Source of the DNA: Marinicella sp.
Lineage (GTDB): Bacteria > Pseudomonadota > Gammaproteobacteria > Xanthomonadales > Marinicellaceae
Assembly (NCBI GenBank): GCA_965230295.1
Contig: OZ246001.1
Location: 896,001 to 960,000 of the forward strand
Reading direction: 5' to 3'
Length of the DNA: 64,000 nucleotides
The notes under the pieces are model-generated. The model was not told where the DNA came from. It saw only the letters and a program-made list of their open reading frames with translations, and searched no databases. Both the position numbers and the translations under genes were made by a program. Of the stretch, positions 30,769-59,015 are shown piece by piece (positions within the stretch are counted from its first letter, which is position 1; each line of letters begins with the position of its first letter).

Positions 30769-33700
30769 TCACCTGTTGGTTTGATTGTCATTTAAAACAG
30801 GTCCCCAACTTTGATCAGGAGTTAACATTTCGGGGAACTGAATATATTGACAGAGTCCACCAAGAGCATCAATCACCTCTGTGCAAGATGTCGATTGATC
30901 CAAACCCTGACCCAATCTCTGGATTTGCATGATGGGCGAACTCATACTGAATTCATAAGGGTTCAAACCTGCATCAGTACCAACCGGATTGCTCTGCAAA
31001 TAACGGCCAATTTCAGGGTCATAATCGCGCCAGTAATTGTGGTGCATGCCCGACTCTCCGTCATCATATTGCCCTGATGATCGCAAGTAAAAATGAAAAT
31101 TGCTGCCATCACCATCAACATCTTTTTCAGGACTGGTGGTACCAAATGCATCAGACTCCAATGACCAGATCCTTACTCCAGCATCGTTGGTGATCCAACG
31201 TGGTGCATGCAAATGATCCGTTTGGATGTAGTAAATGTCATCATGAGTCATGCCTTTACTTGAATAAAACTTGCGAATTTGAGCAATCAATCGATCGCCT
31301 AAATACACATTCTCTCGATCCCAAATGTGCTGGCCATTCTTGTATTTTGATACATGAACCAAACGACCTTGCTCATCATACAAAAACAGGAATTCTCCAG
31401 CCAATGCACCATTGGTTTTGTTGTGGGTCTTGTGGACCCGCTCACCCAAGGCATTGTATCGATACACGGCCCTGGTGATAACACCCTGGGTGTGGGTACT
31501 CATGCGATTGGCTTGATTGTAAATCCACTGTTTGTCTCCAGTGTGATGGGTTTGCAAGGTGTTGCCATTGGCATCATATACCCGGTTTGCACCAAAGTTA
31601 ATCGACATCAAACGATTGCTGTTGGGGTCAATGGTGTAATTGGTGATGATGGTTTCAGACTTATTGCCATTCAAACCACCGTTGGAACCCCCATTGGCTT
31701 TGGCCGATGGGTTACCCCCTGCTTCACGCATGATTCGATTGCCTGCCTTGTCATATGAATAAGTCGTATTCAAATAATTTTCACTGGTCAATCGATCCAA
31801 TCGATCATAGCTGAACCAATCGTTATTGGTCGAGATTTCTCTGGTGACATAAGTGATGTTGTGGTTGTTGTCATGATTGAATGAAGCCGTCACATCGACA
31901 CCATAATTGTATCCAGTCATTCGATAACCATTGTCATACAATGCGTTGTAATGCTGTCCATTACCAAAATTAATCGATTCGATCGGTCCAAACGGCAGAT
32001 AACTGACACCTGTGATTAAGGAATCAGTGATTCCAGTTGGACTGGTGGTGGTGATTCGTTTAACTTGATTCAGGTCATCGTATTCGTAAGCCAACGTCAT
32101 ACCTGATGGATATGACATGCTTGCCAGACGGTCATAAGAATCATAACTGTAACTGATCGTCAGATCATTGAAAGCTGCATAGCTGGTGGCATCAAACCCA
32201 CTGACCTCTTGCGCTTTACTCAACAAATTTCCAAAGGCATCATAAGTGAATGCAGTCTGTCCACTTTGATCAATGAAGCCGGTCAGTTGGCCAAGCCCTC
32301 CTGCACCTTGGTCATAGAAGAAATAATTGTCCAGGCTGCTGTCAGCATATTCCACCAAAGTCAAACGATTTCTGCCGTCATAAACCCTTTCAACCAGATG
32401 ACCATTGGCATCTGTCTTACTGACTTTATTGCCTGCCGCATCATAAGTTTGATGACTGGTTCCACTGTCAGGACTGATCAAGGTGATCAGATTACCAAAA
32501 TCATCGTAATGGTGGGTGGTCACATTGCCCCTGGCATCGGTGGTGGTCTTCACCCGGTCAGCCACATCATGACTGAATTGAGTCATGGTGTTGGCCGTTG
32601 CAGGGACAGTACCCAAATAATCTTGAGTTTTTTGGGTCAAACGATTGAGGCTGTCATAACTGTAATCAGTCGTCACCCCTTTACCGTTGGTGTAGCTGTT
32701 CAAGTCTCCATTGCTGCTGTAATCGTAAGTCACAGAAACACCGGATTGTTGTCTACTGGCCAAGTATCCATATGCATCAAACGATTGGTTGATCACTCGA
32801 CTGGGTATCGAAACACCCTTACCAAAGGATTGTTCTGACAACAGGTTTCCTTCACTGTCCAATGTGTACTCAATGCGGTTGTCGGCCTCATCAGTGATCT
32901 GTATCAACCGCAATGCATCGTCATAAGTCAGACTCAACCTTGTTGCTTTCGCTGTGCCATAATTCTCAGTCACAGAACTGAGGTGTCCGGTATGCAGATA
33001 GCCATATTGGGTCACCCGAGTTTCGGTGCCAACAGCCATGTATTCAGATGAGGACAACAGCCTATCTGTACTTGGTTCATAAGTGTACTCAATGGTCACA
33101 CCATTGGGCCTTTGCTCTTCGGTTACTTTTCCTGACGCTGACCAGCGAATCTGATCTCGTTCAACCAATCCACCAGGACCAGTCACCCGTTTCAGGCGAT
33201 TCTGCCTGGTTACCACAGGATTGTCTTTGGCATAGTATACGTAGTCTGTCTGATCAATGGCACCTGGTCTGGGACCATCATCCAAGCTGATTTGATTGAA
33301 AGGTCCTGCATAGGTATGAGCGACTGATCGGCTGATGGCAGTGCCATCTGGTCTGAAACCGCTGCTGCTGACAGACGTGACTTGACCATAGTTGTCATAA
33401 ACATAAGAAGTCACTTTGTTTTGACCATTGAAAACCGACGGCTCAGAGATACTGGCAACTTTGCCGTAGAATCGAGAATCATAAGTATAATCAGTGCGGC
33501 GTTCATGAGCACCTACACCAGGTTCATCGGCCTCTATGCGATAAGCAAATTGGCCCTTGGTGTCATAACCCCCGTAGGTGGTTGTGGTGCCTTCGTTGGT
33601 GTGGCTGATTAAATTGTTTTGAGCGTCATAATCGAATGATTCATTACCCAGTTCACAGCCAGAACATCCCGGACCACTGAAACTCTTCAAGCGCCACAAG

Positions 33701-36700
33701 TCACCTGATTTCTCAACTTCAAGGCTGCTCACAGCATCCAATGAATTTGTCAGCGTTCTGTTGATATCAGATGTATAAGAGATCGAAATTCGATTAACCC
33801 CATTGGCCAACTCACTGGAAATCAAGCGTCCCTGACCATCATGAACGAAGGTACTGTAACGAATGCCCCGTTGGTCAGTGATGCCGGTCAATAAGCCAGG
33901 ATGCTTACTATTTTCATAATGGAAGATCTTGCGATTCAACCTGAGACTGGACGGATAATTGATATGAGTTATGTTGTCCTGAGTATAAGTAAATGTCCAA
34001 CCACGACTGCTGCTGTCGGTCACACTGTTGATCCTAATAACCGAATCAATCACATCAAAGAAAATGTTGATGTACAAACCATACTCGTCAGTAACACGAA
34101 TGTGATCACTGTTGTGAGTGACTCGGATTCTTTCTCCAGTGTTCAATCGAATTTCATTCAAACGACCCTGTGAATCATAATATTCTTTGTCACCATTCTT
34201 GGCATAAAATGTCCATCCTTTGCTGGTTTGTTCCAAACCGCTTTTCACATGATTGGTGGCCACCCAATTAAATTGCAACCTGTAGTATTGATAGATACGA
34301 CCGTCAGGACGGGTCACATTCACCCACTCAACACCAGATTCATCCAAATAAATACCTGACACGCTGCGGTTGTAATCATGGGTCCAACGCATGCCTGTGT
34401 CACCATGGACAGGCTCTCCAAAGGCATCCACCTCTGTGTGTGAGTTATAAGTCACACCAAATTTCAAACCATGGCCCAGTTTGAGCAAGGGTTCATGGTG
34501 ATGGTGGTTACCAGTGGCCACATTGATCGCTTTGGCGATCACGGTACCGCCACCCTCACCCATGGGTGACATGGTTTGGGGACCCTGGTCGTCTTCGTTG
34601 ACACAACCTTTGTCTGTATTCAAATAAGAACCGACCGGGCAACTGATACCATAGTAGTATGTAGCTTGGTGGTCAATTCCATTCACTTCCGGCCAACGCA
34701 AGAAGCCATCATAAGACCAGTGTGGATGTTCAGCACCGGCATCAGAGTGAACACAAACCTGATCTGGTTCGGACACTTGTGCTGCCGCCATGTTACATAA
34801 AACTTGTGCTTTCGCCACATTTTCACTCAGGTAGTACACCTCAATTTGTTGTGGTACATCATCATCCAAATTAACCAGATTAGTCACTTCAGGAACCACT
34901 GCTGCGTAGGCTACATCAGTACTGTTGATGACATATGTCAGATCATAATTCACGTCATAATCAGTGATTTCATCATCCAGCCCAACCACTGTCAGTGATT
35001 GACTTTGTGACCAATCGGATGGCGTGAAAGTCAACTGACTGACTGCGATTTGTGCTTCGGTGGCGTCTGAAACATTGAAATCCAAAATCACATCAGCCGT
35101 CGGCTCAACTGACAAAGACACATCAAATTGCGCTTGTAATTGTCCCGCTTCATCGGTTTCAAAGCCACTCAGATTGTTCATGATTACAGCAGCCACATCA
35201 TCATCGATGTTGGTCACACTGACCACAGCCATTGCAAGCCCGTCATAATGACCATCTGTACTACTGACAGCGCCATTGATTGTGTAATCAACATCGCCAT
35301 CAACCACGCCATCGTCCACACCAGTGATCAGCACATCTTGGGCCACATTCCAATTGGCAGCAGTGAAAGTAACACCGCTGTCAACTGTGCCTTCTGAGAC
35401 ATCACTGCTGTTGAAAGCGATGGTCACATCGGCCTCTGGTTCTGAATTCAAAACCACACCAAATTTGGCAGTACCACCTTGCTCGGAGGTGGTCAGACCA
35501 TTCACAGGTAAGACCGTCACACCTGCCACATCATCATCGGTGTTGGTGGCATCAATGGCTGGAATTGCCAAGCCATCGTAGCTGGCATCTGCGCTGCTGA
35601 TTGTGATGCTGACTTGATAGTTTTGATCACCATCAATCAAAGCATCGTCTTGACCCGTTAAGGTGATGGTTTGTTCGGTACTCCAGTTGACTGTGGTAAA
35701 GACCAATCCAGTCGGTGCCACCAAGGCTTCTGATGCATCAGAGCTGTTGAAAGTCACCGTCACGTCAGCGGTAGGTTCAGCCGTCAAACTGATGGTCACA
35801 TCAACCGAACCACCGGCTTCACTGGTTTGCAAAGCCCCTTGTGGAGTGATGATTAACCCTGTGCTGTCATTGTCTTCATTGGTCAAATTAACATCTGCAA
35901 TGACAATGCCTTCGTAATTGACATCGGTACTGCTGCTGGTGAAGCTCAATAAATAAGCTTGGTCACCATCCACCAAAGGATCATCTTGTCCGGTGATTGT
36001 TACCACCTGTGCTTGATTCCAATTGATCGCATCGAACACCATCAAGCTGACATCTACAGTGCCTTCTTCTTCATCAGAACTGAGCAAAGAGACATTCACT
36101 GCATGCAGCGGTTCACTGGTTAAAGTAACTTCAAACTGTGCGGTACCGCCGGCTTCAGTGGTTGTTGTGCCACCAATCGCAGTCACAGAGACTCCGGCTT
36201 GGTCATCATCCGTGTTGGTCAGGCTCAGCGCATCAACCACCAAACCATCATAATTAACGTCAACACTGCTGACTGCCGTATTGATGTCATAGGTCACATC
36301 ACCATCAACCACCGCATCATCTTGACCGATCACATTAATGACTTGTGGCGTGTTCCAATCCGTTGAAGTGAAAGTCAACTGGGCAGGACTGACCTGTCCT
36401 TCGGTTTCAATCGAACTGGATAAATCCAAAATCACATTGTCAGACGGTTCTGTCAACAATGTGACTTCAAAACTGATCACATCACCTGTTTCAGAAGTGG
36501 TAGAACCAGCCAAAGCGGTGAACAGTACACCCGGGATGTCATCATCGACATTGGTCACTTCAAGATCGGCAATTTGTGTGGCAGCGAACTGGGCATCGGC
36601 TGATTGTATCGGACCAAATTGCAAAGCGGCCACCTGATCACCATCCACCAAGGTGTCATCCACACCGGTTACCGTGATGGCTTGTGGTAGCGACCAGTTA

Positions 36701-39700
36701 TTCAAATCAAACAACAATTGACTCACATCTGTTGAAATTTCACTGTCGTCACTGACCGTCACAGGTATGATCACATAATCTTCAGGCTGTTGTACCAGTG
36801 TGACATTGACCGTGGCCTGGTCGCCAGCTTCGCTGACCGCATTATCAACAGCCAGAACTTCAATCACCGAGGCATTGATTTGCAAAGTCTCTGTGCTGTA
36901 ACTGACCACCGATGAGGAGCCATCTGAGATTACGGCATACAAATATACCGCATTTCCAGCCAAGGCACTGATGTCCCAATCATAAGAGTCATCACTGTTT
37001 TCAGACAATCCGGCCACAATCAGCACACCATCGGAACCACTGTTGTCCAGATCATAGTACAAATCGATGTTGGCATCCGAGTCGGCATCACTGGCCAACC
37101 ATTCAATGCGGAAATTACTGGCCGCTGTGCTGGTGGCTTGTTGTAAGGAAACAAACTCAAAAGCAGGCACATCATCCACCAGATCATCAATCACAAAAAC
37201 TGACTGTAACGGAGAAAAGGGTGTTTCAGAACCGTCACCATTCAAAGCTTTGGCTTGCCAATAGTATTGGTTGCGATCGGTCATCGCCGGACTCAACGCC
37301 ACGGGCTGATCGACCACTTGTGATGAGAACAACACCGTGGCATCGGCATCTTCATAGATGTCCACTTGGAAAGTCTCGGCAAAACCGGTGTATTGATCAA
37401 TAGCGACCTTCAACTCTGGTGTGACTGTGGAAACCCAGCTTTGGTCGGCCGGGTTAACCGTTTTAATCAAAGGCGCACCGCCTAATTTCTGGGTGGTGAA
37501 TTGGCCGTATTGCCAACGACCGTAGCGGAATTCAGGGATCTTATTGCCCCGTGCTCGCCAATAATAGACTGTGTCATCAGTCAAACCAGTCACTGACCAA
37601 ATGACTTGTCCCGAGACATCAGTTACTTGAGTGAATTGTTGAATACCAGGTGATGTGAAATCTGGTTGCACATCAATTTCAATATCGATAAACACATCCA
37701 GTGGCGCATCCACAATCAAATCCACATCTACTCCGGTCAACGCTTGGTTGACCGGGGCATTCAATTGGTAACCGGTTTGCGGTGAAACGTTAACTCCGCT
37801 GGTGAATTGACTGTCCGCACACAACACTTCGTTGTTACCATCGGTTACTTTGGCGGTCCAGAAATAATCAACAAAAACTTCATATTCATTATAAGGCTGC
37901 CAGCTGCGCAGCTGACCTGAGCTGGCTTGTAACCAACCGGAATCAGCCAACATGATTGTTTTTGCAGCATCTTCAAACACTTCAAAACGATATTGCAAGG
38001 CATCGCCTTCGGCGTCCAGGCCTTGATTCACAGACAACTCAACGACGTTGTCATTGACTGACAAGCCAGCCTCAGGATACTCCAACCCACAATATTCAGG
38101 CGCGTTGTTCGTGGCACTGAAGAAGAACTCATCGTATGACCAGTTACTGTAGGTGACACCGTCAAACGCCCTTACCCGCCAAATATAACGAACATCTTCA
38201 GTCAAAATTTGACCGTGTGCCCACACGGTGGTGCTTAATTCAGATTCGTCAATGGTTTCGCTGAAGAACAGGTTCTGTAAACTGTTCTCATACATCTCGA
38301 ATTCATAGACCATGGCTGCGTCCACCGCACCCACTGAATTGACAATCATGAATTCAGTGGGCTCCACCGCCACTTGAGCACCTGCCAATGGGCTCTCAAT
38401 CACCACCGCTTGGGGCCGGTCTTCAACCGTAGGATTACCACCATGATCATGTTCTTGTTTATCTGTGGCACTGTCCTGATCAAAATCACCCGTGCCATCT
38501 TCATCCAAATCGCCAAAATGCTCCATTTCCCAGGCATCCAGTAATCCATCACCATCGGTGTCATCCGGGTCTAGTTGGGAGATGATCAATTGCACATTGA
38601 CATCCTCATCAACGGTGCCGTCACTGGCCCTGAACGAGGCATTAAAAGTGCCCTCAGCATCGGGGGTCCAATTAAACTGCCATGTACCCGATCCGGTGGC
38701 GGTTAAGCTTGCGCCTACAGGCAGACTCAATGGCGTCAGGGTCAACACATCCTGGCTGTCGTCATCGGTGACCAGAATATCGAAACTCATGGCTTGATTC
38801 ACATACCCAGTTTGCGGACTGGTCACCGCCACTTCGGGTCTGGCATTGGGTTCCAACCCATCAAATATCACTGTGTAAGTAACCGTGTTTCCATTGTGGC
38901 TGTAACTTTCATAAGTATCAAACAAACCGATGAAATAAGTGAAAACGCCCGGATCGCCCTCCACTTTGTATTGCCAAATATTTTCAGTTGGCAACACTTT
39001 ATTATCATCACGAATCGCGGTGATCATTTGCGGGATGCCTGCATAATCATCAGGCCAGTGAACAAATACTGGATCACCGTCTATTTCCGGAGTCACTGTC
39101 ACTGTCACAAAGCGTCTGTCATTGCTGACGCCGTTGTCTACAACTGCACCCTCCCCCAGTATTTCCAAATTATCTACCCGAACATCCATACCATTGGATT
39201 CATAGACATATAAAGTGTCTCCTGAGAAGGCCAGAAAATCAGTTACCCCATCACGGTCGGCTTCGGCCACTTTGACTTTGTGTAATAGGGTATGAGTTTG
39301 GGGTTGGCCGTCAATCAGGGAAGTTAACTCACCCCCTAAATCATCGGAATGAACATAATCTGCGCTAAAATCTACAAACTGGCCAGTCAATGAAGTCGTC
39401 ATCTGCCAACTGACCATGGCACTTTCCTCAGATGGCAACGTCCCAATGTCAGCCAGCAAGGAAGGCACAACGGGTTGGTCATTCACTGATGTACCTAACA
39501 ATGTAAAGTCAATCAACAGACCCTGATTATTTTCGGTGATGGTGGGTTGGGCCGATTCAATTTTCAGATTGGTGGCCTCACCATCGCCGATGTTTTTGAC
39601 GCGCAACCCCAGGTCGAATGGTTCTGCCGGTTCTATGATCGGTGGTGGTGTGTTGGGATCATCAGCAAACACATCAGCCGGCAGGAAATAATCCAGCTTC

Positions 39701-40263
39701 AGAAAAGGCGTAGGTCGCACTTCGATGTAGTCTGGGGCCACTTCAATGGTTTGGCTTTCTTCACCAAATTTGTAATTAACCGTTGCACCAACACCATAAG
39801 TTTCACCAATTTTATTGCCTGCAGGTACAGCTACTTTTCTTGGAATGATTAACCATCGTATTTCAGCCGTTTCACCAGCCGGTAATACGGCCATACCATC
39901 AGTCAATTTGGGCACGTCTTCCAAATCATCTATGGCCAATGGTTGGCCATTAGAATCTTCCAGTCCATCAAGGTAGTCAACGGTGATGAAAAACTTCACA
40001 TCATCCGTACCCTGTGCGTGGTTATAAGAAGCAGTGACCGGATTGCCATCGACATCCCTAAACACCACATTGATGCCCAGTTCACTCAAATCCAGCGCTT
40101 CCAAACCGTTGGTGATCACCATTTTCGCTTCGAACGCCTGACGCTCAAAAGTCACCTCTTGTCTGATTTCAATTTTCACCACCGCGCAGATCAATTCTGC
40201 CAGGGCCATCATGGGTGCCATCAACAACACCATTGCCAACATCATTTTTTTCATCATATTCAT
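30769..40263 (-). CDS. Giant (3164 aa) secreted multidomain protein: conserved N-terminal domain, Ig/cadherin-like, TSP3-like Ca motif, FN3/Ig-like, six Calx-beta-like repeats, DUF6531-like domain and Rhs/YD cage with degenerate core
   Basis: Sec signal (..APMMALA); DTDGDGLLDAWE; six roughly 113-aa TxExG...W...DDxxVDGD...TNxDDD repeats; INVATGN..TYNS..G.RWTH; many YD repeats; TDHLHAPR...GQYDDGESG.HHNYWRDYDPEIGRY. Confidence 0.9.
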   Translation of the reverse strand: MNMMKKMMLAMVLLMAPMMALAELICAVVKIEIRQEVTFERQAFEAKMVITNGLEALDLSELGINVVFRDVDGNPVTASYNHAQGTDDVKFFITVDYLDGLEDSNGQPLAIDDLEDVPKLTDGMAVLPAGETAEIRWLIIPRKVAVPAGNKIGETYGVGATVNYKFGEESQTIEVAPDYIEVRPTPFLKLDYFLPADVFADDPNTPPPIIEPAEPFDLGLRVKNIGDGEATNLKIESAQPTITENNQGLLIDFTLLGTSVNDQPVVPSLLADIGTLPSEESAMVSWQMTTSLTGQFVDFSADYVHSDDLGGELTSLIDGQPQTHTLLHKVKVAEADRDGVTDFLAFSGDTLYVYESNGMDVRVDNLEILGEGAVVDNGVSNDRRFVTVTVTPEIDGDPVFVHWPDDYAGIPQMITAIRDDNKVLPTENIWQYKVEGDPGVFTYFIGLFDTYESYSHNGNTVTYTVIFDGLEPNARPEVAVTSPQTGYVNQAMSFDILVTDDDSQDVLTLTPLSLPVGASLTATGSGTWQFNWTPDAEGTFNASFRASDGTVDEDVNVQLIISQLDPDDTDGDGLLDAWEMEHFGDLDEDGTGDFDQDSATDKQEHDHGGNPTVEDRPQAVVIESPLAGAQVAVEPTEFMIVNSVGAVDAAMVYEFEMYENSLQNLFFSETIDESELSTTVWAHGQILTEDVRYIWRVRAFDGVTYSNWSYDEFFFSATNNAPEYCGLEYPEAGLSVNDNVVELSVNQGLDAEGDALQYRFEVFEDAAKTIMLADSGWLQASSGQLRSWQPYNEYEVFVDYFWTAKVTDGNNEVLCADSQFTSGVNVSPQTGYQLNAPVNQALTGVDVDLIVDAPLDVFIDIEIDVQPDFTSPGIQQFTQVTDVSGQVIWSVTGLTDDTVYYWRARGNKIPEFRYGRWQYGQFTTQKLGGAPLIKTVNPADQSWVSTVTPELKVAIDQYTGFAETFQVDIYEDADATVLFSSQVVDQPVALSPAMTDRNQYYWQAKALNGDGSETPFSPLQSVFVIDDLVDDVPAFEFVSLQQATSTAASNFRIEWLASDADSDANIDLYYDLDNSGSDGVLIVAGLSENSDDSYDWDISALAGNAVYLYAVISDGSSSVVSYSTETLQINASVIEVLAVDNAVSEAGDQATVNVTLVQQPEDYVIIPVTVSDDSEISTDVSQLLFDLNNWSLPQAITVTGVDDTLVDGDQVAALQFGPIQSADAQFAATQIADLEVTNVDDDIPGVLFTALAGSTTSETGDVISFEVTLLTEPSDNVILDLSSSIETEGQVSPAQLTFTSTDWNTPQVINVIGQDDAVVDGDVTYDINTAVSSVDVNYDGLVVDALSLTNTDDDQAGVSVTAIGGTTTTEAGGTAQFEVTLTSEPLHAVNVSLLSSDEEEGTVDVSLMVFDAINWNQAQVVTITGQDDPLVDGDQAYLLSFTSSSTDVNYEGIVIADVNLTNEDNDSTGLIITPQGALQTSEAGGSVDVTISLTAEPTADVTVTFNSSDASEALVAPTGLVFTTVNWSTEQTITLTGQDDALIDGDQNYQVSITISSADASYDGLAIPAIDATNTDDDVAGVTVLPVNGLTTSEQGGTAKFGVVLNSEPEADVTIAFNSSDVSEGTVDSGVTFTAANWNVAQDVLITGVDDGVVDGDVDYTINGAVSSTDGHYDGLAMAVVSVTNIDDDVAAVIMNNLSGFETDEAGQLQAQFDVSLSVEPTADVILDFNVSDATEAQIAVSQLTFTPSDWSQSQSLTVVGLDDEITDYDVNYDLTYVINSTDVAYAAVVPEVTNLVNLDDDVPQQIEVYYLSENVAKAQVLCNMAAAQVSEPDQVCVHSDAGAEHPHWSYDGFLRWPEVNGIDHQATYYYGISCPVGSYLNTDKGCVNEDDQGPQTMSPMGEGGGTVIAKAINVATGNHHHHEPLLKLGHGLKFGVTYNSHTEVDAFGEPVHGDTGMRWTHDYNRSVSGIYLDESGVEWVNVTRPDGRIYQYYRLQFNWVATNHVKSGLEQTSKGWTFYAKNGDKEYYDSQGRLNEIRLNTGERIRVTHNSDHIRVTDEYGLYINIFFDVIDSVIRINSVTDSSSRGWTFTYTQDNITHINYPSSLRLNRKIFHYENSKHPGLLTGITDQRGIRYSTFVHDGQGRLISSELANGVNRISISYTSDINRTLTNSLDAVSSLEVEKSGDLWRLKSFSGPGCSGCELGNESFDYDAQNNLISHTNEGTTTTYGGYDTKGQFAYRIEADEPGVGAHERRTDYTYDSRFYGKVASISEPSVFNGQNKVTSYVYDNYGQVTSVSSSGFRPDGTAISRSVAHTYAGPFNQISLDDGPRPGAIDQTDYVYYAKDNPVVTRQNRLKRVTGPGGLVERDQIRWSASGKVTEEQRPNGVTIEYTYEPSTDRLLSSSEYMAVGTETRVTQYGYLHTGHLSSVTENYGTAKATRLSLTYDDALRLIQITDEADNRIEYTLDSEGNLLSEQSFGKGVSIPSRVINQSFDAYGYLASRQQSGVSVTYDYSSNGDLNSYTNGKGVTTDYSYDSLNRLTQKTQDYLGTVPATANTMTQFSHDVADRVKTTTDARGNVTTHHYDDFGNLITLISPDSGTSHQTYDAAGNKVSKTDANGHLVERVYDGRNRLTLVEYADSSLDNYFFYDQGAGGLGQLTGFIDQSGQTAFTYDAFGNLLSKAQEVSGFDATSYAAFNDLTISYSYDSYDRLASMSYPSGMTLAYEYDDLNQVKRITTTSPTGITDSLITGVSYLPFGPIESINFGNGQHYNALYDNGYRMTGYNYGVDVTASFNHDNNHNITYVTREISTNNDWFSYDRLDRLTSENYLNTTYSYDKAGNRIMREAGGNPSAKANGGSNGGLNGNKSETIITNYTIDPNSNRLMSINFGANRVYDANGNTLQTHHTGDKQWIYNQANRMSTHTQGVITRAVYRYNALGERVHKTHNKTNGALAGEFLFLYDEQGRLVHVSKYKNGQHIWDRENVYLGDRLIAQIRKFYSSKGMTHDDIYYIQTDHLHAPRWITNDAGVRIWSLESDAFGTTSPEKDVDGDGSNFHFYLRSSGQYDDGESGMHHNYWRDYDPEIGRYLQSNPVGTDAGLNPYEFSMSSPIMQIQRLGQGLDQSTSCTEVIDALGGLCQYIQFPEMLTPDQSWGPVLNDNQTNR
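34855..36870 (-). repeat. Six diverged Calx-beta-like protein repeats (about 113 aa each)
   Basis: Units begin SEAGDQ, SETGDV, TEAGGT, SEAGGS, SEQGGT, DEAGQL; shared PTADV, NWS/NWN and DDxxxDGD motifs. Boundaries approximate. Confidence 0.8.
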
Positions 40264-40310
40264 CCTTTATTGAATTGTCTGAATGTATTCTTCGTTCCTG
40301 ATCAAATGGC

Positions 40311-40364
40311 TCACCAGCCGCCTCCGTTGCCGCCGCCTCCGCCACCACCGCCACCACCAGCGCA
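40311..40364 (-). repeat. Poly-glycine C-terminal tail C-A-G10-N-G3-W
   Basis: Mixed GGC/GGT/GGA codons. Confidence 0.9.
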
Positions 40365-43300
40365 AGGGTTCGTTTTGGGACATTTGTCGCAACTGTTGTA
40401 CAATTCGATACAACCTTCAAGCTTGCACCCTAATTTCACATCATCTAAGTTATCCAATGTGGCACCGGCATTGCCATAATATCCACTGCTAGAACTAAGA
40501 CCCGCTCCAGCATGGAAAAATGGGACATGGATTTCGCAACCAAAACTGGCTGAAGCACAAGAACTGGGTGGTGGGGGTGGACCTGGAAAAAATCGTTCTT
40601 TGTTGTCAAATCGATTGGTCCCACCTTTACTCCTTTTGTAAGGTCCTATTCCGGCAGACCCTTTGAATTTGGGCCGGTCGTCATCGGCATCGGTGATGTC
40701 TGTTCCAATTCTAAAGGACAGGCAAATTTTTACTTTGACACAAGTCCAGGAAAATTCAAATTTCAATTTGCCACATGTCCTGGCACCCAGCCCCAAACAA
40801 ATACCCCCATCGAATTTAAGCAAACCAGTTGGATCGGTGTATCTTAGTGGCGCATTACTGACGTAGACATACTCATTGGCATCGGCATAAACACCCAATG
40901 GATCACGCTGAATATATCGGCCCAAACCAGGAGCATAATCCCGATTGAAGTTATGGTAGGTAAACGACTCGGGATCTGCATATTGGCCCGGCATCATCAA
41001 TGGATCGGTGTGCCCGTTGACGGCTTGCCAATCATGTGATTCACCAAAAGCAGAGAATTCACGGGCCAGTTGCACCACACCTTGACTGTCGATGATTTTG
41101 TGCGGTGTGCCCAGATGATCATTCAGGTAATAGAAATAACCTTCAGCTGATTTCTTTAAGATCGGTTTGGCCCCTTCTAATTGATGCGGCTCATGTAAAT
41201 AATTAACTGTTGAACCATCGGCAAGACGCTCATGAATCAAACCTTCTTTGCCATAGTGGAAATAGGTGGTTTCATTGTTGGCCAGATCCTTTTTAAAAAT
41301 ACGTCTACCGAACGGGTCGTAATGGTATTCATGGGTAGCTGTTCCGCCACCGTCTTGAATTTGGGTTAAACGCATGGCTTCGTCATAAACGTAGTTATTC
41401 AAAACGCCTAAACCGGCATCAGTGACTTGTGTCATGTTGCCATTGTCATCATAGACATAGGATTGGGTGATGGCATCCACCAGTTGGTTGTTGGCATTGT
41501 ATTGCCAAATGGCATCGTTGGTGGTCAGTGAAGTGGTGCGGTTTCCTACCGCATCATACTGGTACCCTTCGGTTGGTAGGGATGGGTGTGTGGCACTGAT
41601 CAGCTGGTCCAGGTTGTCATATCCAAAAACATGGTTTCCTTGTTGGGTCTCTTTGCTGGTCATGAAACCATAGTCATTGTAGCCATAGACATGCTCCTGA
41701 ATGGGATTGGCTTGGGCGTCAGTGGCCGTGATGCTCATGGTCCGTTGCAGACCATCATAAGTCATCTGTTTCACCACCCCACCAGGCATGGTCACCTGTT
41801 GTGGCTTATTGACCTTAAAATCAGAATAAACGATGTCGCCCTGGTTGGGAATCACCACTTTGGCCAAACGCGCATCATCATAAGAAAATGGGTACTTGAT
41901 GCCATCCACTCCGGTGAAGCTTTTGGTCAAGCCATCTTTGAAATATTCATAGCTGTGGTTGAATGAGTGGCCATGTACGGTCAGAGTTTCACTCAACTTG
42001 TTCAGCTTAAAGTCATAGGTCGCTGTGCCCACCAAAGTGCCGTCTTCATATCGTTCAATAGCTCCACGGTTGTTGAGGGTATAAGTTATGGTATTGACCA
42101 ATTGTTGTTGCCCATCAATGGAGCGAAAGGAGCGGGTTCCGACCTGTCGACTGTCGTCATCGTATAAATATTCAATGCGATTGCCCATGGCATCTTCTTT
42201 GAATGTCACATAATTGTTTTCATCATAAATAAAATGAAACGCTTCATTCATGGGACGAATCACATCTTTCAGATTGTTCGCCAAATCATATTCAAACCGA
42301 TGTCGGTTCAATTTGGCATCATAAAATTCAATCATGTTATCCCGGTCATCATACCGATACTGTTGCTGTAAAACCCCTTCATGATAACGATGGGTCCTTC
42401 TGTTGAGCGCGTCGTATTCAAATGTGATGGTCCGTTCTGCATTGCCGGAAGTTTCAATGATGTTACCTACGGCATCGTATTCGATGTTCATGACATCGAT
42501 TTTGGTCTCACCAGCTTGTTCATAGGTTCGTGTTTCCTGGATGATGCGATTTTGCAGGTCATACCGCAAATCCATACTGTAAGTGGGGAAAACCACCCGG
42601 GTGGGTTGATAAAACGCTCCCGAATTCATCGGTGCATCCACCAATGGTTGATAAGAATATGTGGTGATCAAGCCACTTGCTGTGATCATGGCCGTCATAC
42701 GACCAAAATCATCGTAGGTATAGGTTGTTTCATTACCCTCCTCAGAAATTGCCTTGCTGAGGCTACCTGCCGATGAATACTCGGTGATCAGCTCACCACC
42801 CATTTCATCAGTAACCTTTATTCCACGACCCAATGGATCACTTTCATAAAATCGTTTTGACTGATCTGGATGTTCCACCTCAAGCAAGTGCCCAAGCTTG
42901 TTGTATTTATACTTGGTTTCAAACTGGTTGGGGGTCTGCTTCAAGGTCATGTTGCCGGCATCATCGTACTCAAACGTCCACAGTTTGGTCCTGGCATCTG
43001 TGTATGTTTTGACATTGCCGCGAGCATCATGGGTGAAGAACCGTTCATTCAGTCTGCCATCGGTTGCTTTGTTCATGTTGCCATGGTCATCGTATTCATA
43101 AGTCTTCACTGACTCGGCCGTCTGGGCATCTGCCAAAGATCTGACTTCGGTCACTTGACCATAGGCATCATGAGTCAAGCGATGAATGCGTTCAGCTGGT
43201 TCTCCCACTGCTTCAACCACCTCAAACAAATTGTTGTTGACATAAGAGTAGGTGGTCAAGACACCATTGCGATCACGCATGGTCAGCAAATTGGAATTGG

Positions 43301-44393: not shown

Positions 44394-44522
44394 AGCAATT
44401 TTTCCTTAATAACTTGTTTCTATTTGCAATGTGGGTGGGGACCACTGTGGTCTTATTGCCACCTTCATTGCAGTTTTATATTCAATCCATATTTATTCAG
44501 AACATGTTTTCTTTGGTACCAG

Positions 44523-44636
44523 TCAGTTGCCGCTACCGGGGCCACCGCCTCCAGGACCGCCGCCTCCGCCGCCACCTCCAGGGCCTCCGCCGCCTCCGCC
44601 TCCGCCGCCTCCGCCGCCACCGCCGCCACCGGCACC
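44523..44636 (-). repeat. Poly-glycine C-terminal tail G16-P-G8-P-G4-P-GSGN
   Basis: Read from (GCC/TCC/ACC)n triplets on the + strand; synonymous codons are mixed. Confidence 0.9.
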
Positions 44637-47600
44637 AGAAACGTTACAACATTGATCACCTTCACATTCAGGCGCACAAGGGGAAGATTCCTCATTGGCA
44701 CCAGGTCCGCCACACCACAGTGCCGCATCTGCTTGCCAACATCGGAAATCAAGTGGTCCACCGTCACGACTGTTGCGAGGTGGTTTGGGCAGCTTAATGC
44801 CAGGCTCACCACAGTCATCACCCGCCACATATGACACGTAACTGGGTGATGCGGTCCCGTCAATCTCGCCGCTTGGGCACTGGAATTTGTAAGCGCCATT
44901 GATTTGATTGGTGTAGCCAGAACAACCACCACCGCCCGCATTGCCATCAGCACCGGGAACCAAAGATCGTTTATTGATCAACTTAAAGGGTAAATAGTGG
45001 GTTTCATTGGCTTCGATGCTCTCTGGAACTTCTCCCAAAATCTCGTAAATGAAATATTCATCTTCATTGGGAAAGTTCAAGGCCAGATCGTGGGCCCTGA
45101 TCAAGCCCAAGTTTTTGATTTCCAGTAAACCGGTATACACATCTCCGGGATACATGTCAGGCAAATTGGTGACTGTGGGGCTGATCATCACCACAGGCGC
45201 CGGTACATTGGTTTCAAAGGTCGCATTCATAACCACTTCATAGCGATCTTCAATGGTGATTTCTGTCACTGACCAATCGATGGTGATCAGGTTTCGTTGT
45301 AAAAAGAAGAATTCACTGTTACCAGGAGGACCAGACTGTGGATCCGGTAAGACCCGCATGCGACCATTTAAATCTTCATAGTTAGAGCTGGTGACCTGAT
45401 AACGGTATCGCCCAATATTGATTGGCTCAGTTTGCACCGCGCCTGAGGCATCTGTGACCCACTCATAAACTCGATTGGAATCTATTTCGCTGGTTAATCT
45501 GATCCGCACATTGGCCAAACCTATGGGGTCTGGGTATTCTAATGGATCCAGTCCGGTATATACATTGGCGGTTTGAAAAGCCACAGTGCCCATATCATTG
45601 GTGGTAACCATAGCTGTCAATGGCACATAAAATGGATCTATGTTGTCGCCAGTGATCTCAATGACGTAACCCGAGAGTATTTCACAGGGATCAGGTATTT
45701 GATCACAAATGTTGCTGGGTGGCGTCATGCCTACGTTGACTTCCACACTCTGATAGATTCCCAAAACAGGGATCGTTGCGTTGGACATGAGGTAGATCCA
45801 ACTGGGGGCAACATCAACCACCTGTCCCTGCTGATCCAGTTCAACAATCCTCAGAGACAATTCTTCAGCATCAGCAAAACCATTGTTGGTCATCTCAAAA
45901 GTATCAGTCACCGCCACTCCCGGATTGCTGCGCAGGTCTAACAAATGGGGTTCAACTTCCAATGCCGGCATGCCATTTGCAGCTTCAAAGTTCAATGTGG
46001 CACGACCCAACTCCAAGGTACCGTAATTATCTGAGATAATCCTCACTGTCAATTGACCTTGGCTGACACCCCCATTAGACACATTCAATAACACCGGTAC
46101 GGCTTGCCAATTCATTGGGTGGTTTAACAACGGCAGGGCTGCAGGCAAGGTGATGGCTTGTGCAGGCACATCGGAGGAAACCAGCTCTACCCTAACATTT
46201 TGATACTCCAAGCCACGGGGGGCTTTCAAATACAACAAATGTTCAGTGTCAACGTTGTAAGGGATTCTGACATTTTCATCTTGAAAATCCGCATAGATCC
46301 GTCCCACTTGGAAGCTACCATCCATCGGACGATCCAAAATGTCTGGGTGAGTCACCGACACTTGATATGTACCGGCATCGGTACTACCGGCTGTGTGGGT
46401 GTATGAGAACTGACCAAAGGCATCAGTGAACACATCAATGTTTTGCTCAAAGCCTTCATTACGCAATGATAAATTCAGGGGCACATCAGCCACTGGCTGA
46501 CCATTGTTTCGTGACACTGCTTGACCACTGATGCTGGTGGTTTCACCTTGAACTATCAGCGGTTCACTGACACCCAACAATTCACCCGCGTATGACGTTT
46601 CAGCCAATACCGTGGGTTGGCGTGTTTCAACACCCTGCAGGATGATGGCTTGACCTGAATTTTGGTCAAAGTACATTTTTTCAATGCTGGCTACCACCAC
46701 CACATGATCCCCTGCATTGGCTGGGATGTTGATCGGCTGTGACGATGACAAATAACTGGTGCCAGCCGGGATGCGAGCCACAGTCACTCCAGTGGGGAAC
46801 GTGAATACGTTGTTACCCAACACTTGTCTGAAACCCGCCAAAGCCAAGGTGTTGCCATCGTCATCTTCCAGTCGCAAATGCACATCGCCACTGTCAAGTG
46901 AACCAGTACCCTTTGCGGTGATCAAATCAACACTTTGTTCGCCTGGGTTTTGAATCAGCAATTGAACTTCACCAGTGGTGCCCCTGACAAAATTGTTGGT
47001 GGTGATGCTGATGATCAAGCCACCTTCTTCAACCGGTATGGCCAATTGACTTTCGATGTTGGCTGACGAGCCATCGGTTGGACGATGGTGAATGGTCATG
47101 TCAACCAAAACCTCTTCGGTTCCTACCGGCATGTTTCCTGGGATGTTCAGAGAAACTTCCGCACTGCCAAAACCAGCTATCGAAACTTCATTGGAGTGAT
47201 ACGTTTCACCCTCTACCATCAAAGTCATGGTCACATGGTCAATGGCCTCGGCTTCGTGGTTGGTGATTTCCATGAACAGTTGGTTCATCAACCCACGCTT
47301 GAGGCTTTGTTCGACCATCAGATCGGCAGTCAAATCGGGTAATTTGAGGGTATTGGGCAGAGACTCTCCTCCATTGATGGCGACCACCGCATATGTGCGG
47401 CCTGAACCAGCATAGGAGTCGTCAGTATAGGTGGTGGTTCCTGAGATTGTGCCTGAGGTGTTCAACTTCACCGCATTGCCATTGTCGATTTGATACACAT
47501 CGAACTCAGTGGCTATGTTGTGTGACCAGTTCAAACTTGGAGACGAGGTATCACTCACCGAGATGTTGAAGTTTTGTACCGGTAATAACGAGGGATTGAT

Positions 47601-55622: not shown

Positions 55623-55645
55623 AACAAATGCCTGTTTAATCGTAA

Positions 55646-56515
55646 TTATTTCATGGTTACTTTCAGTGCTGGGTCAGAAACCCAGAATTTTTTAAATTGG
55701 CTGTGCTCAGCCGTATCGGCCACGATGTTCATGGCGATGTATTGGTGTTGCTGTTTGCGGTAGATGTTTTTTTGTGGGTCCACCACTTGCCAGCCACCGT
55801 CAAGCCAAACCTCACTCCACGTATGGAATTCGGTCGGATCGAGAATGGAGTCTTGCTTCACAACATAGCCATTGACTGCACGGGCTGGAATGCCCAATAT
55901 GCGGTTGATGGCAGTATTTAAATAGGCGTACTCTGTGCAGTCACCAGACAGGTTCTTGGCAGCAAAGGCGGCCCCTTTGTCTTTCGAGCCATAGCCTGTG
56001 TATTCAATATTTTCTACCAACCAGTTATGTACCTGTTCGGTGGCTTCATCACCCAAGTATTCAAACTGTTGTGCAACCTCAATAACGTGTTCATTTTCCA
56101 ACTCGATTTGCGGCTGTGAAGTCAGAAATAAGGGCTGTGCAGAGTCAGCACCCAGGGCTGTTTCTGACAGCTTCAGTTGGGTTGTGATCACAACTTCCTT
56201 TTTGCCATACGGTGCCAGTCGTTCAATGTTGAACTGCAGAATCACATTGCCATAAGCATCCTGCTGGCGTGTGAATGGATCGTTGCTGGTCACCTTTGTA
56301 ACTTGCTGCGTGCTGGTCAAAGACACAGGTGCAAACACGTAAAATTCAATGTTTTCAGATGCTGTTGACTGCTTATTTTCCAACAAAAATGCGTATCGGA
56401 TGGTGCGGTCGATGTTCCATTCCTGGACGATGGTTGCCTGTTTGATGAACAGCCACCACAGCCCAATGACCAACAAGGTCATGGCAGCAACCCACAGAAT
56501 CATGCGCTTCTTCAT
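55646..56515 (-). CDS. Membrane-anchored transglutaminase-like cysteine enzyme
   Basis: N-terminal TM helix; GDCTEYA (Cys), GIPARAVNGY, FHTWSEVW (His), WQVVDP (Asp); ATGA overlap with the upstream gene. Confidence 0.9.
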   Translation of the reverse strand: MKKRMILWVAAMTLLVIGLWWLFIKQATIVQEWNIDRTIRYAFLLENKQSTASENIEFYVFAPVSLTSTQQVTKVTSNDPFTRQQDAYGNVILQFNIERLAPYGKKEVVITTQLKLSETALGADSAQPLFLTSQPQIELENEHVIEVAQQFEYLGDEATEQVHNWLVENIEYTGYGSKDKGAAFAAKNLSGDCTEYAYLNTAINRILGIPARAVNGYVVKQDSILDPTEFHTWSEVWLDGGWQVVDPQKNIYRKQQHQYIAMNIVADTAEHSQFKKFWVSDPALKVTMK

Positions 56516-57360
56516 GAACATGACATTCTGGCTCCGTCGGTGCGACGTTTTTGGTATTGCACAATGCGCCGATTGTGTTCATGCACTTGTAAGGCTGATT
56601 GCACTTTGCTGGCACCAACGGCATAGACATTGGCCTTAAGTTTGGTGCGCCATTTTTTTACAACCTCGCGTGCATCAAGATGATCTGGAATGACCAGTAA
56701 AACGTTCTTTATCAATCCTTTGGCTTCAGTGATTTGTTGGGTAAATGATTGTGGAGACTGCAATATAGCAAGGCCATCCAAGGCGATCACACTGTCAAAG
56801 TATCGATCCATATGGGGGTTGTTGGAGCTGTCAACAATTTGCCAAAAACCGGTATCACCACCCATGGCATTGTTCAGTAAAAACAGGTCATCTAATTTTG
56901 AATACAAAGATTCACCTTCGATTACTGACTTCCAGTAGTCAACCCCTCCATCGAGAATTTTGACGTTGTTAAATCCGCGTTTCAGCAGTTTCTTGTGCAG
57001 GTCTTCCAGATGTCGATAAGACTGGCCTTGCCCAACCAGCACCACTTCTCGTTCTTTGAAAAATGGTATGGTCAATAATTTCGAATGGGGTAAATTGAAT
57101 GATTGATCGATATGATTGTGTTGATAGGCATCTACATTGCGAATATCGACCACCATCAATTGAGGTTTATTTTGACTGATTTTGTGCTGTAGCAGATACG
57201 GAGAAATGTATTTCTCAGGATCACGATGCCACTCAATCTTTTGCTCTGGTTGCACCAAATCAATGGATTTGAAATCACACTGCAAAATGGCTTGTTCAGC
57301 CAATACGGGTAGAGCCACAATTAAAATTGCAGCTGCAAAAAAGGTATTACGCGCCCTCAT
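56512..57360 (-). CDS. Exported rhodanese-like domain protein (catalytic Cys absent)
   Basis: Signal peptide from ATG 57360; VVDIRNVDAYQHNHIDQSFNLP, LLKRGFNNVKILDGGVDYW; active-site loop reads VVLVGQGQS. Confidence 0.8.
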   Translation of the reverse strand: MRARNTFFAAAILIVALPVLAEQAILQCDFKSIDLVQPEQKIEWHRDPEKYISPYLLQHKISQNKPQLMVVDIRNVDAYQHNHIDQSFNLPHSKLLTIPFFKEREVVLVGQGQSYRHLEDLHKKLLKRGFNNVKILDGGVDYWKSVIEGESLYSKLDDLFLLNNAMGGDTGFWQIVDSSNNPHMDRYFDSVIALDGLAILQSPQSFTQQITEAKGLIKNVLLVIPDHLDAREVVKKWRTKLKANVYAVGASKVQSALQVHEHNRRIVQYQKRRTDGARMSCS

Positions 57361-58043
57361 AGCAGCTGAAATAATAGATCGGTATTGGGATCGGTATCGG
57401 GTGTGCAAATGATTTTCAAATGCACCAGTGCTGCGATGGGTTGATTGATTTCTCGGATAATCATCAAACTGTCCTCTGTCTTCTAGATTGCAAAATGTCC
57501 TTTTTTGGTTTAGGTTTTGTTACAAGTCATGTGTTTGGTATGACTCGTTCTTACCACCACCTAATTGGGTGCAAAATTTACTGCACTTCTGAAAACATTG
57601 CAAGAAAAAAATTCAAATCAAATTGATTTTTTTAGCCAATCAAGTACATAGCAGGCTTCTGTTAAAGGATGTTGGCAACAGTATGATACACAAATTCTGT
57701 TCACAATTGCTTGGCTTGCAACAAGCACAAGAGGAATCCGAATCCATCGATAATAAACCGGTCATTATCACCATTTCTACAACAATCTGCACCTCGTTCA
57801 GAGTGTTTATTTGCACTTCGCTTTTAAGCCAGTTGTTCAATCGATGCCTGTTAAAATCTAGAGGATCAGCCCTATTTCAAGCTCTAGACGTTATTTAGGT
57901 GGTCAGGTGCAGCCTGCCCAAAGCTTTGAACATAAACTTCAATTGAGTAGCGGTCACCCACATTAAGTTGTCATTTTCACAAGATTACCACCTCGGTAAG
58001 TGGTAATATATTAAATAAAAGGACAGGAAAAGAAATCAAACAT

Positions 58044-59015
58044 ATGTCATCCAACATACCAGAACACCCTTCAACTGCCAACAGGCAAATTAAAACCGAT
58101 CAAAGTGATGCGCAAGCCATTGAAGCAGTCATCGATGCAGTTGGGCAAAAAATCCTTGATAAACAAGAATCAATCAAAACAGTCATTGCAGCACTGATTG
58201 CTGGTGGACACGTGTTACTAGAAGATCTACCAGGGCTGGGGAAAACAACCTTAGCAACAGCCATATCACAAGTTTTTGATATGGACTTTAAAAGGATTCA
58301 GTTGACTTCTGACATGATGCCCAGCGATGTCTTAGGTGTCAGTATTTACGATGCCACCACCCAAACATTCAGTTATCACAAAGGACCCATTTTTACTCAA
58401 TTCTTATTGGCAGATGAGCTCAACCGAGCCACGCCCAAAACCCAAAGCGCTTTGTTAGAAGCCATGGCAGAAAATCAGGTCAGTATTGATGGAAGAACTT
58501 ATGCTTTGGATGAAGTGTTTTTTGTCATGGCCACCCAAAACCCCATAGATGAAGCAGGCACCTATGCATTGCCTCAATCACAACTGGATCGATTTTTAGT
58601 CAGTTTGTCATTGGGTTATCCTGAACAACAAAGTGAGCGGGAGCTTTATGGGGCCGCTTACCTGAACGCGTTTAAACAACCTATTGAAGCCTTGAGTTCG
58701 CCTGACCAACTGCTTAAATGGCAACATGATGCCAGGCAAGTTCATGCCAGCGAAGAAGTGTTGGATTACTTACAACTGCTGATTCACAAAACCCGAATTC
58801 ATGGCGAAATACACCATGGGTTATCGCCCAGAGCTGGATTGTCCATGTTCAGGTTGGCACAAAGTTTCGCCTACATGGCCAACCGGGATTTCATCACACC
58901 AGCAGACATTCAACAAGCTTTCTATCCTGTATGTCGGCACCGTCTGATGATGCTTGATGGACGACATGCCCGCGAATTGATCCACACCATTCTTGATGAT
59001 ACCGCAGTTATTTAA
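58044..59015 (+). CDS. MoxR family AAA+ ATPase
   Basis: GGHVLLEDLPGLGKTT, RIQLTSDMMPSD, LADELNRATPKTQSALLEAM, ATQNP, QLDRF. Confidence 0.95.
   Translation: MSSNIPEHPSTANRQIKTDQSDAQAIEAVIDAVGQKILDKQESIKTVIAALIAGGHVLLEDLPGLGKTTLATAISQVFDMDFKRIQLTSDMMPSDVLGVSIYDATTQTFSYHKGPIFTQFLLADELNRATPKTQSALLEAMAENQVSIDGRTYALDEVFFVMATQNPIDEAGTYALPQSQLDRFLVSLSLGYPEQQSERELYGAAYLNAFKQPIEALSSPDQLLKWQHDARQVHASEEVLDYLQLLIHKTRIHGEIHHGLSPRAGLSMFRLAQSFAYMANRDFITPADIQQAFYPVCRHRLMMLDGRHARELIHTILDDTAVI

Follow-up and report, generated by a model that had tools for sequence, protein, structure and literature searches.

What common task could be served by five co-oriented genes on one strand of the Marinicella sp. genome that encode a rhodanese-like protein, a transglutaminase and three very large proteins? 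The window (the whole stretch of DNA analysed here, 64,000 nt, positions 896,001-960,000 of OZ246001.1; G000:C1:896001-960000) belongs to a single contig of 4.0 Mb. According to its listing of open reading frames (ORFs), positions 30769-57408 of the minus strand are filled by five ORFs, numbered P0001 to P0005 in the direction of transcription: the rhodanese-like protein, the transglutaminase, a giant protein, an Rhs cage protein, and an Ig-array protein fused to a second Rhs cage. A first-pass annotation had taken them for a candidate undescribed system that would build a surface or extracellular apparatus, rather than a classical polymorphic toxin. On the evidence given below, the five genes are probably a reduced copy, gained by horizontal transfer, of a conserved system whose core is formed by Rhs polymorphic toxins exported through Sec.

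Forty loci were gathered from other genomes by means of an alignment of transglutaminase relatives, exact motif patterns, and contigs from one genome per species. A profile search recognized a pseudo-rhodanese gene immediately upstream of the transglutaminase gene, on the same strand, in 34 of the 40 loci, all of them among the 37 whose transglutaminase match is strong. Twenty-three of the same sequences had gone into the profile, and BLAST with the window protein alone gave 25 loci. The six loci in which the profile did not recognize it consist of two contigs of Desulfobacterota metagenome-assembled genomes (MAGs), one partial match and three distant transglutaminases. Homologues of the giant, Ig-array or Rhs proteins were found within ±10 kb in 17 of the 40 loci, and in 22 after extension. 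The extension consisted of a whole-genome search with the conserved C-terminal module of the giant in five seemingly negative loci, which yielded exactly one match each (E-value ≤ 1e-164), and all five (5/5) of these giant genes lie 10-30 kb upstream on the same strand. Elsewhere, homologues of P0003 are located directly after the transglutaminase gene or at the head of the cluster. The linkage of the two small genes to giant or Rhs genes in other genomes, which the first-pass annotation had set beforehand as the test of a joint system, was therefore found.

Full maps were drawn for five beta- and gammaproteobacterial genomes (G041-G045), namely, those of Rhizobacter, Chitinolyticbacter, Aquabacterium, a Burkholderiales MAG and a Moraxellaceae MAG. 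In all of them the cluster lies on one strand and is co-linear, in the order giant, Rhs, Ig-array, secretion-like machine, pseudo-rhodanese and transglutaminase. The window shares the giant-Rhs-Ig-array order, and orthologues of P0004 occupy the same position in G041-G045 and in Marinicella pacifica (G002). A second Rhs gene follows the Ig-array gene directly in two of the five mapped genomes, which parallels the fused P0005. M. pacifica is the nearest relative that has the system; one of its contigs carries the rhodanese, the transglutaminase and the N-terminal part of the giant, and a second contig carries the C-terminal part of the giant, an Rhs gene, two small ORFs with exported products, and an Ig-array gene that stands unfused. 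Gamma- and Betaproteobacteria have the same families together in the same order, and records of Desulfobacterota, Myxococcota and Bdellovibrionota show this in part. This synteny supports the view that the five genes constitute one conserved functional set.

The nature of that set is suggested by the Rhs proteins of the clusters. A strict pattern placed the cleavage motif in 8 of the 15 Rhs ORFs examined. Five of the seven that were missed have, as judged by eye, a DPxGE variant followed by a HINT domain, and the remaining two are P0005, in which the motif is degenerate, and that of L042, which is cut by the end of the locus. No tip-to-tip similarity (E-value ≤ 1e-3) was found among the eight tips with a located motif. 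Pfam identified toxin families in the tips of three relatives: PT-HINT and HNH (G041), PT-HINT (L043) and Ntox16 (G045). Small immunity-like ORFs lie directly behind the Rhs gene in G002, L022, G042, G045 and L043; those of G002 are two paralogous signal-peptide or lipoprotein ORFs, and that of L022 encodes a 116-aa membrane protein with four helices. No such ORF was found behind the Rhs genes of L024, L031 or the window. Because the tips are mutually unrelated, some are known toxin domains, and several are followed by immunity-like genes, the family is, as far as its gene content tells, a polymorphic-toxin system with new signature accessory genes, and the earlier preference for something other than a polymorphic toxin was given up. 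The tip of the G002 Rhs (L059 8021-11923) contains an HEEVH motif that could mark a metallopeptidase; neither this tip nor the two small ORFs belong to any Pfam family.

Three other Rhs loci exist in the window genome, each with small ORFs behind the Rhs gene, so that the missing immunity ORF is a trait of the operon and not of the organism. The locus at G000:C1:1379222-1383637 encodes a 1471-aa Sec-type Rhs with a DPNGA variant of the motif and a 102-aa ORF behind it. The other two (G000:C1:1551084-1557917 and 3225921-3232793) are giant Rhs-type genes of 2277 and 2290 aa with immunity-like small ORFs behind them, and the former is followed by four lipoprotein-like ORFs of about 185 aa.

The coordinates of the operon and its parts are given in Table 1. 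The ORF of P0001 (56512-57408) opens at TTG 57408; ATG 57360 is most likely the true start, and gives a 282-aa protein with a signal-like N-terminus. P0002 overlaps the stop of P0001 by 10 bp if it starts at ATG 56521, or by 4 bp (ATGA) if it starts at its third codon, ATG 56515. The latter overlap was worked out from the translations and coordinates, not from a separate reading of the DNA letters. The remaining gaps are 23, 129 and 47 bp long, too short for any additional gene. The compact arrangement described in the first-pass annotation, with its overlap and three gaps, is thus confirmed by the ORF coordinates, and its figure of more than 8200 aa of exported protein agrees with the sum of the three large products, 8223 aa (3699 + 1360 + 3164); Sec signals, and hence export, were judged by eye from the N-termini. 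A Pfam scan (E-value ≤ 0.01) covered the five operon proteins, with antisense ORFs left out, and gave no match to PAAR, VgrG, type I secretion system (T1SS) or TpsB families. As there is also no room for further genes, the operon indeed has no immunity, PAAR/VgrG, T1SS or TpsB gene, as had been stated.

Table 1. Features of the operon in the window (positions counted from the first letter of the window).
Feature	Position	Strand	Basis
Intergenic region, 683 bp, presumed to bear the promoter	57361..58043	.	operon to divergent moxR
P0001, exported tandem rhodanese-like protein, catalytic Cys missing	56512..57360	(-)	Pfam, alignment of 24 relatives, AF2, Foldseek
P0002, transglutaminase core with N-terminal membrane anchor, translationally coupled to P0001	55646..56521	(-)	Pfam, alignment of 18 relatives
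P0003, exported giant, 3699 aa	44523..55622	(-)	translation, Pfam, homologues elsewhere
Three tandem 1098-bp repeats within P0003	52410..55532	(-)	tblastn self-matches; repeat search, 3 copies 1098 bp apart
P0003 C-terminal tail: GGGC..Y...C motif, 9 Cys, poly-Gly run of 16	44526..44936	(-)	composition, alignment
P0004, Sec-type Rhs/YD cage, 1360 aa	40311..44393	(-)	RHS_repeat, Rhs_assc_core, cleavage motif
P0004 tip, 169 aa, orphan	40314..40820	(-)	homology search, Pfam, composition
P0005, Ig-array protein fused to Rhs cage, 3164 aa	30769..40263	(-)	ORF listing
P0005 N-terminal 1250 aa, conserved Ig-array module	36514..40263	(-)	alignment, AF2
P0005 Rhs cage part	30934..34116	(-)	Pfam, NCBIfam, BLAST
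P0005 degenerate cleavage motif QRLGQGL	30901..30921	(-)	both catalytic Asp lost

Both Rhs proteins of the window match RHS_repeat (E-value = 3.9e-43 for P0004 and 2.6e-42 for P0005) and Rhs_assc_core (TIGR03696; 1.8e-16 and 3.2e-13, respectively). The aspartyl autoproteolysis motif of P0004 is complete (QRDPLG...PLRYTDPTGL; tested as PxxxxDPxGL with an upstream DPxG). Its tip contains 11 Cys and a run of 10 Gly, whereas the core of 1191 aa has no Cys at all. When searched for homologues among 5.8 billion clusters, covering proteins of 748-2380 aa, the tip returned itself alone. The cage of P0005 is 51% identical to the Rhs at G000 1379222-1383637 and 24% identical to P0004. Its motif region reads QSNPVG...SPIMQIQRLGQGL, in which both Asp positions are substituted, and 43 residues remain after the motif. 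The view that one cage is cleavable and the other dead was accordingly retained.

In the N-terminal module of P0005, residue 3 of the mature protein is a Cys, five beta-sandwich domains are predicted, an acidic motif is of TSP3/dockerin-like type, and many invariant columns are found in the first 340 aa. Its AlphaFold2 (AF2) model is all-beta (pLDDT 78.3), and Foldseek gave generic matches to Ig, cadherin and MG domains with TM under 0.2; the model shows a predicted chain of beta-sandwiches and nothing more specific. At E-value ≤ 1e-10, 464 proteins (clusters at 90% identity) carry this module among 8000 scored. The middle of P0005 is composed of internal repeats of about 110 aa each. Elsewhere the Ig-array module is a separate protein of about 1300-1900 aa, and no Ig-array homologue examined outside this genome has an Rhs in the same ORF; the fusion thus seems to be a local event. 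P0005 carries an acidic DTDGDGLLDAWE motif; dockerin (PF00404) or TSP3-type motifs occur in several of the Ig-array homologues.

P0003 begins with three 366-aa repeats, continues with beta-sandwich arrays of the Ig, FN3 and CarboxypepD_reg types (Pfam matches: fn3, Big_13, Glucodextran_B and CarboxypepD_reg) and ends with the conserved C-terminal module. The repeat cores are 98-99% identical at the DNA level; Tandem Repeats Finder, whose longest period is 500, reported no rows for these repeats with their period of 1098 bp. In G002 the counterpart gene is broken across two contigs at such repeats, so short-read assemblies would often break or collapse here. Nine of the 14 Cys of P0003 lie in its last 137 aa, and in all four aligned giant C-termini the motif GGGC..Y...C.NG is followed by a Gly-rich stretch. 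As first described, both P0003 and P0004 end in Cys-rich and poly-Gly tails. The poly-Gly end holds for the giant family in the form of this Gly-rich stretch but is not a family trait of the Rhs proteins, and in the closest relative, G002, the end has no poly-Gly run. The two tails show no similarity in BLAST (E-value = 1.4) and are alike solely in composition. A sequence search of the PDB with P0003 found nothing, and the ESM Atlas gave only leads under 0.9 (0.80 for the C-terminal part of P0003 and 0.75 for the N-terminal part of P0005).

These features bear on the best surviving alternative to a toxin system, in which the gene products form, in this organism, a surface or extracellular scaffold without toxic function (a stalk, matrix or adhesin) that is cross-linked through the Cys-rich tails and the transglutaminase, with Rhs cages that are structural or adhesive as in teneurins. 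The window itself offers several points in its favor: the immunity gene is missing, the Cys- and Gly-rich tip of P0004 matches no toxin family, neither catalytic Asp is left in the P0005 cage and little follows its motif, beta-sandwich arrays dominate the large proteins, and the Cys-rich C-terminal motif is kept in the giant family. However, orthologous clusters have recognized toxin tips and immunity-like ORFs, P0004 keeps a complete autoproteolysis motif that is needed only for freeing a tip, and the fused dead cage was seen in this genome only, among the Ig-array homologues examined. A purely structural role in this organism is accordingly rather unlikely, and the polymorphic-toxin reading is preferred.

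Of the enzyme pair, P0001 matches Pfam Rhodanese (E-value = 1.3e-09), and its scores against the NCBIfam rhodanese equivalogs are all far under the cut-offs. In the alignment of 24 relatives, C28, D72, R74, G139 and C281 are invariant, of which C28 lies close to the start of the mature protein and C281 at the C-terminus, and the position of the active-site Cys is occupied by a nearly invariant Gly (G112). The earlier term pseudo-rhodanese is therefore apt, and P0001 is predicted to be catalytically dead as a rhodanese. Its AF2 model (pLDDT 82.8) shows a rhodanese domain, modeled with confidence, and another domain of alpha/beta type, and the top Foldseek matches are the tandem rhodaneses 1yt8, 6mxv and 1urh and the single-domain 3nhv and YgaP (TMt 0.6-0.75), so that the modeled fold is that of rhodaneses. 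The pseudo-rhodanese family has 797 representatives at E-value ≤ 1e-30.

P0002 matches Pfam Transglut_core (PF01841; E-value = 2.4e-21, 76.5 bits versus a cut-off of 23). C195, H233 and D248, which we take from their spacing to be the catalytic triad, are invariant among 18 relatives, and thus the triad is apparently intact and an active enzyme is predicted. The nearest solved sequences are 3isr (E-value = 1.7e-13) and the periplasmic domain of TgpA (6g49), and the closest transglutaminase relatives are 79% and 77% identical. The N-terminus looks like a membrane anchor more than a cleaved signal. A complex prediction with residues 30-291 of the transglutaminase and 22-282 of the pseudo-rhodanese scored 0.01 (mark 0.32), and is evidence neither way. 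In a Moraxellaceae MAG (L037 11747-14472), a CBASS-like pair, consisting of a DncV-like nucleotidyltransferase and a ThiF/Prok-E2_B protein, lies directly downstream of the transglutaminase gene of the cluster.

In other bacteria the set is accompanied by what appears to be its own type II secretion-like machine, which the earlier reading missed. The machine genes, about ten in number and of a divergent type II secretion or type IV filament type, lie upstream of the pair and encode a pseudopilin, GspF-like and GspE-like proteins, two or three unnamed proteins of inner-membrane type, a secretin, and further pseudopilins. Pfam and NCBIfam recognized T2SSF, T2SSE, Secretin with TPR, STN and Cohesin, and N_methyl pseudopilins, all under the equivalog cut-offs. 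In L046, for example, the scores against the cut-offs were 486/630 for GspE, 200/424 for GspF, 149/351 for GspD and 43-47/89 for GspG, and three genes had no family. From these scores the machine is a divergent member of the type IV filament family and not a canonical Gsp type II secretion system (T2SS). Machine genes with the secretin directly upstream of the pair were found in 12 of the 40 loci. The secretin of the cluster (L046 5057-7447, with homologues in the 12 loci) has N-terminal TPR repeats and a C-terminal cohesin domain. The presence of cohesin on the secretin and of dockerin or TSP3 motifs in Ig-array proteins hints at a cohesin-dockerin-type docking of the cargo. The window genome has a T2SS in the Xps order (G000 857073-867919) and a second GspD-E-F set.

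In short, the window has kept the cargo genes and the enzyme pair, the machine was lost or never present, there is no immunity gene, and the Ig-array protein is fused to a decayed cage. A more specific proposal, which we put forward tentatively and consider possible without favoring it, assigns the full cluster to the type IV filament/T2SS superfamily as a separate member, dedicated to the export and display of Rhs cages together with megadalton-scale beta-sandwich proteins, with the transglutaminase and dead rhodanese as a module for maturation or covalent anchoring of the cargo; the window would then hold a machine-less derivative. If this is true, polymorphic toxins would be trafficked in a new way.

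The pair could instead serve the machine or the cell envelope, for example, in the assembly of the pseudopilus and secretin, and its linkage to the cargo would then be secondary. In full clusters the last pseudopilin genes indeed immediately precede the pair, whose distance from the giant gene can reach about 20 kb, and the secretin stands beside the pair in the twelve loci mentioned. In the window, G002, L014, L018, L019, L020, L022, L024, L031 and L039, however, the pair lies beside cargo and the flanks have no machine genes. Because the pair stays with the cargo genes where the cluster has no machine genes, it probably acts on the cargo and not on the machine, and service to the machine seems a good deal less likely than the scaffold discussed above, itself improbable.

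A horizontal origin of the operon is suggested by its distribution and position. An orthologue of the transglutaminase exists in only one (G002) of 23 same-genus genomes, and in G002 the system sits elsewhere than between pyk and moxR. The distance between these two genes is less than 1 kb in 12 of the 14 same-genus genomes that have both on one contig. In the window genome it is 27.4 kb (gap 30680-58043), and in G004 and G008 it is 7.2 kb, with unrelated cargo; this insert (L054) encodes a Ser/Thr kinase-TPR protein, an extracytoplasmic function (ECF) sigma factor, a Calx-beta protein and TPR proteins. The pyk-moxR gap is thus, by these distances, an insertion hotspot of the genus, and because the system is rare in the genus and the gap is normally short, the operon appears to be an island in it. 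The Rhs at G000 1379222-1383637 adjoins a gene pair, ECF sigma factor and kinase/TPR, resembling that of the G008 insert. A chance juxtaposition of unrelated genes without joint function, for which such a hotspot with differing cargo might speak, is very improbable, since it is contradicted by the synteny counts, with the same families in the same order in Gamma- and Betaproteobacteria and in part beyond them, and by genes that overlap or lie 23-129 bp apart.

For the preferred reading, a polymorphic-toxin system acquired in reduced form, the following course may be proposed. Sec would carry all five proteins across the inner membrane. In the periplasm, the transglutaminase-fold enzyme, held by its membrane anchor, would act on the cargo together with the dead tandem rhodanese, whose part would be non-catalytic. 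The enzyme might either anchor the cargo covalently or clip it, the conserved GGG-C tail of the giant being one conceivable site. Papain-fold peptidases habitually cut after Gly-Gly, and for this reason we would guess that the GGG-C motif before the tail is a candidate processing site. The cargo would leave by a type II secretion pathway; for the window genome this would mean one of the general Gsp/Xps systems that it has. Once outside, the Rhs cage may be presented or delivered by the giant and Ig-array proteins, and the cage would free its tip by aspartyl autoproteolysis.

Several observations weigh against this reading. The dedicated machine lacks an orthologue in the window genome, where the best match for GspE reaches 39% identity. 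For the P0004 tip, Pfam gave no credible match, and hence no toxin family, and no immunity-like ORF is present in the 47 bp after P0004 or the 89 bp after P0005. A toxic role in the window is therefore a matter of analogy only, and this copy may or may not still be toxic, by comparison with its relatives. The second domain of the P0001 model aligns to the tandem rhodaneses only at a high root-mean-square deviation, and both the substrate of the transglutaminase and its chemistry (cleavage or cross-linking) are putative. The locus sample was chosen through the transglutaminase, not through the giant, Ig-array or Rhs proteins; 18 of the 40 loci were unextended or end at a contig edge, and in high-GC loci home-made ORF calls were used, so that small ORFs there are unreliable. 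As the 40 loci were found by exact motif patterns, they are not comparable with the 464 Ig-array clusters, which seem to represent a larger family.

On the flanks of the operon, the stop of P0005 is separated by 89 bp from the convergent pyruvate kinase gene (pyk, 29258-30679), and on the other side lies a divergent MoxR-DUF58-TgpA operon, whose moxR occupies 58044-59015. This operon (58044-61919; MoxR AAA ATPase, DUF58, and TgpA with TgpA_N and transglutaminase core) is genus-wide and independent of the island. A functional tie between it and the five genes was considered and rejected, since the trio is kept beside pyk in genomes without the operon. A promoter scan found 5 candidates versus 5.6 expected from shuffled sequences, and a terminator scan was likewise no better than shuffles.

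Sec-dependent Rhs toxins are common, and to our knowledge how they leave Gram-negative cells and reach their targets is largely unknown; we know of no signature partner genes for this class so far. A recurring set of partners can now be defined for Sec-type Rhs proteins, namely, the giant, the Ig-array protein, the transglutaminase, and the dead rhodanese, frequently joined by a private secretin/pseudopilin machine. Cultured bacteria also have the set, e.g., Rhizobacter sp. LjRoot28, Chitinolyticbacter albus, Hahella and Marinicella pacifica. It thus offers testable handles on the export, processing and delivery of Rhs cages, as well as a role for two large unnamed families, the pseudo-rhodanese and the N-terminal module of the Ig-array protein.

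Among known systems, three were compared with the operon and rejected. In Tc (ABC) toxins, a very large A-type protein is encoded beside an Rhs-type cage with an autoproteolytically released tip. P0003-P0005, however, have no TcA, TcB or SpvB-type Pfam families (E-value ≤ 0.01), Sec signals are present here, and the accessory genes differ. Rhs effectors of the type VI secretion system do not fit, as PAAR, VgrG and EagR were found neither in the five proteins by Pfam nor in the operon, and the N-termini are Sec-like. In the LapG-LapA system, a periplasmic enzyme with a transglutaminase/papain-like fold is encoded with a giant exported repeat protein. P0002, however, matches PF01841 only, the operon has no T1SS, LapD or RTX-type signal, and the presumed substrates have N-terminal Sec signals.

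The closest precedents are the RHS toxins of the Sec/T2SS class, some of which have a fused inactive transglutaminase domain for which anchoring was proposed (Zhang et al. 2012, PMC3482391). They resemble the present proteins in their signal peptide, their RHS cage and a tip at the C-terminus that varies; among the relatives of the window, HINT releasing domains and HNH and Ntox16 tips recur, and in both cases a transglutaminase fold is tied to RHS toxins and bacterial Ig domains. In contrast to these toxins, as far as the consulted parts of that paper describe them, the transglutaminase here is separate, membrane-anchored, apparently intact in its triad and paired with a dead rhodanese, and the set includes giant and Ig-array proteins and a putatively dedicated secretin/pseudopilin machine. 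The table of that paper, in the portion consulted, lists no signature neighbor genes for the T2SS class.

Bcn-A of Xanthomonas perforans is an Rhs bacteriocin of about 1400 aa that needs accessory ORFs and loses its activity when xpsD, the gene of the T2SS secretin, is mutated (PMC7259588). It resembles the present system in its Rhs protein with neighboring accessory ORFs, and its producer belongs to the same broad order as Marinicella. It is set apart, as described in the available part of that account, by an immunity ORF, and no transglutaminase, rhodanese, giant or Ig-array genes are mentioned there. Bacterial teneurin-like proteins consist of an FN-plug, an NHL propeller and a YD shell (bioRxiv 10.1101/2025.11.11.687626), and resemble the present system as Sec-dependent YD-shell proteins that carry diverse adhesion domains at the N-terminus, and in having immunity proteins and polymorphic tips, about 15 kDa in size, that are encapsulated. 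The consulted part of that preprint, however, mentions no linkage to a transglutaminase, a rhodanese or a T2SS-like machine, and a sequence-level Pfam scan gave no NHL match in P0004 or P0005. A further RHS/YD protein that is functionally tied to a type IV filament is Bd0109 of Bdellovibrio, a small regulatory RHS-family protein encoded beside type IV pilus genes (PMC3818213); in the part of that report considered here, however, no giants, transglutaminase or rhodanese are reported.

In the literature, supplementary tables aside, we found no account of a set combining rhodanese, transglutaminase and Rhs with giant proteins or pseudopilins, which bears out the initial impression that this combination is not a described system. 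What seems new here is the association of a separate, apparently active transglutaminase with a predicted dead rhodanese, two families of large proteins and, often, a private machine, and if that machine proves to be dedicated, it would represent a new mode of trafficking.

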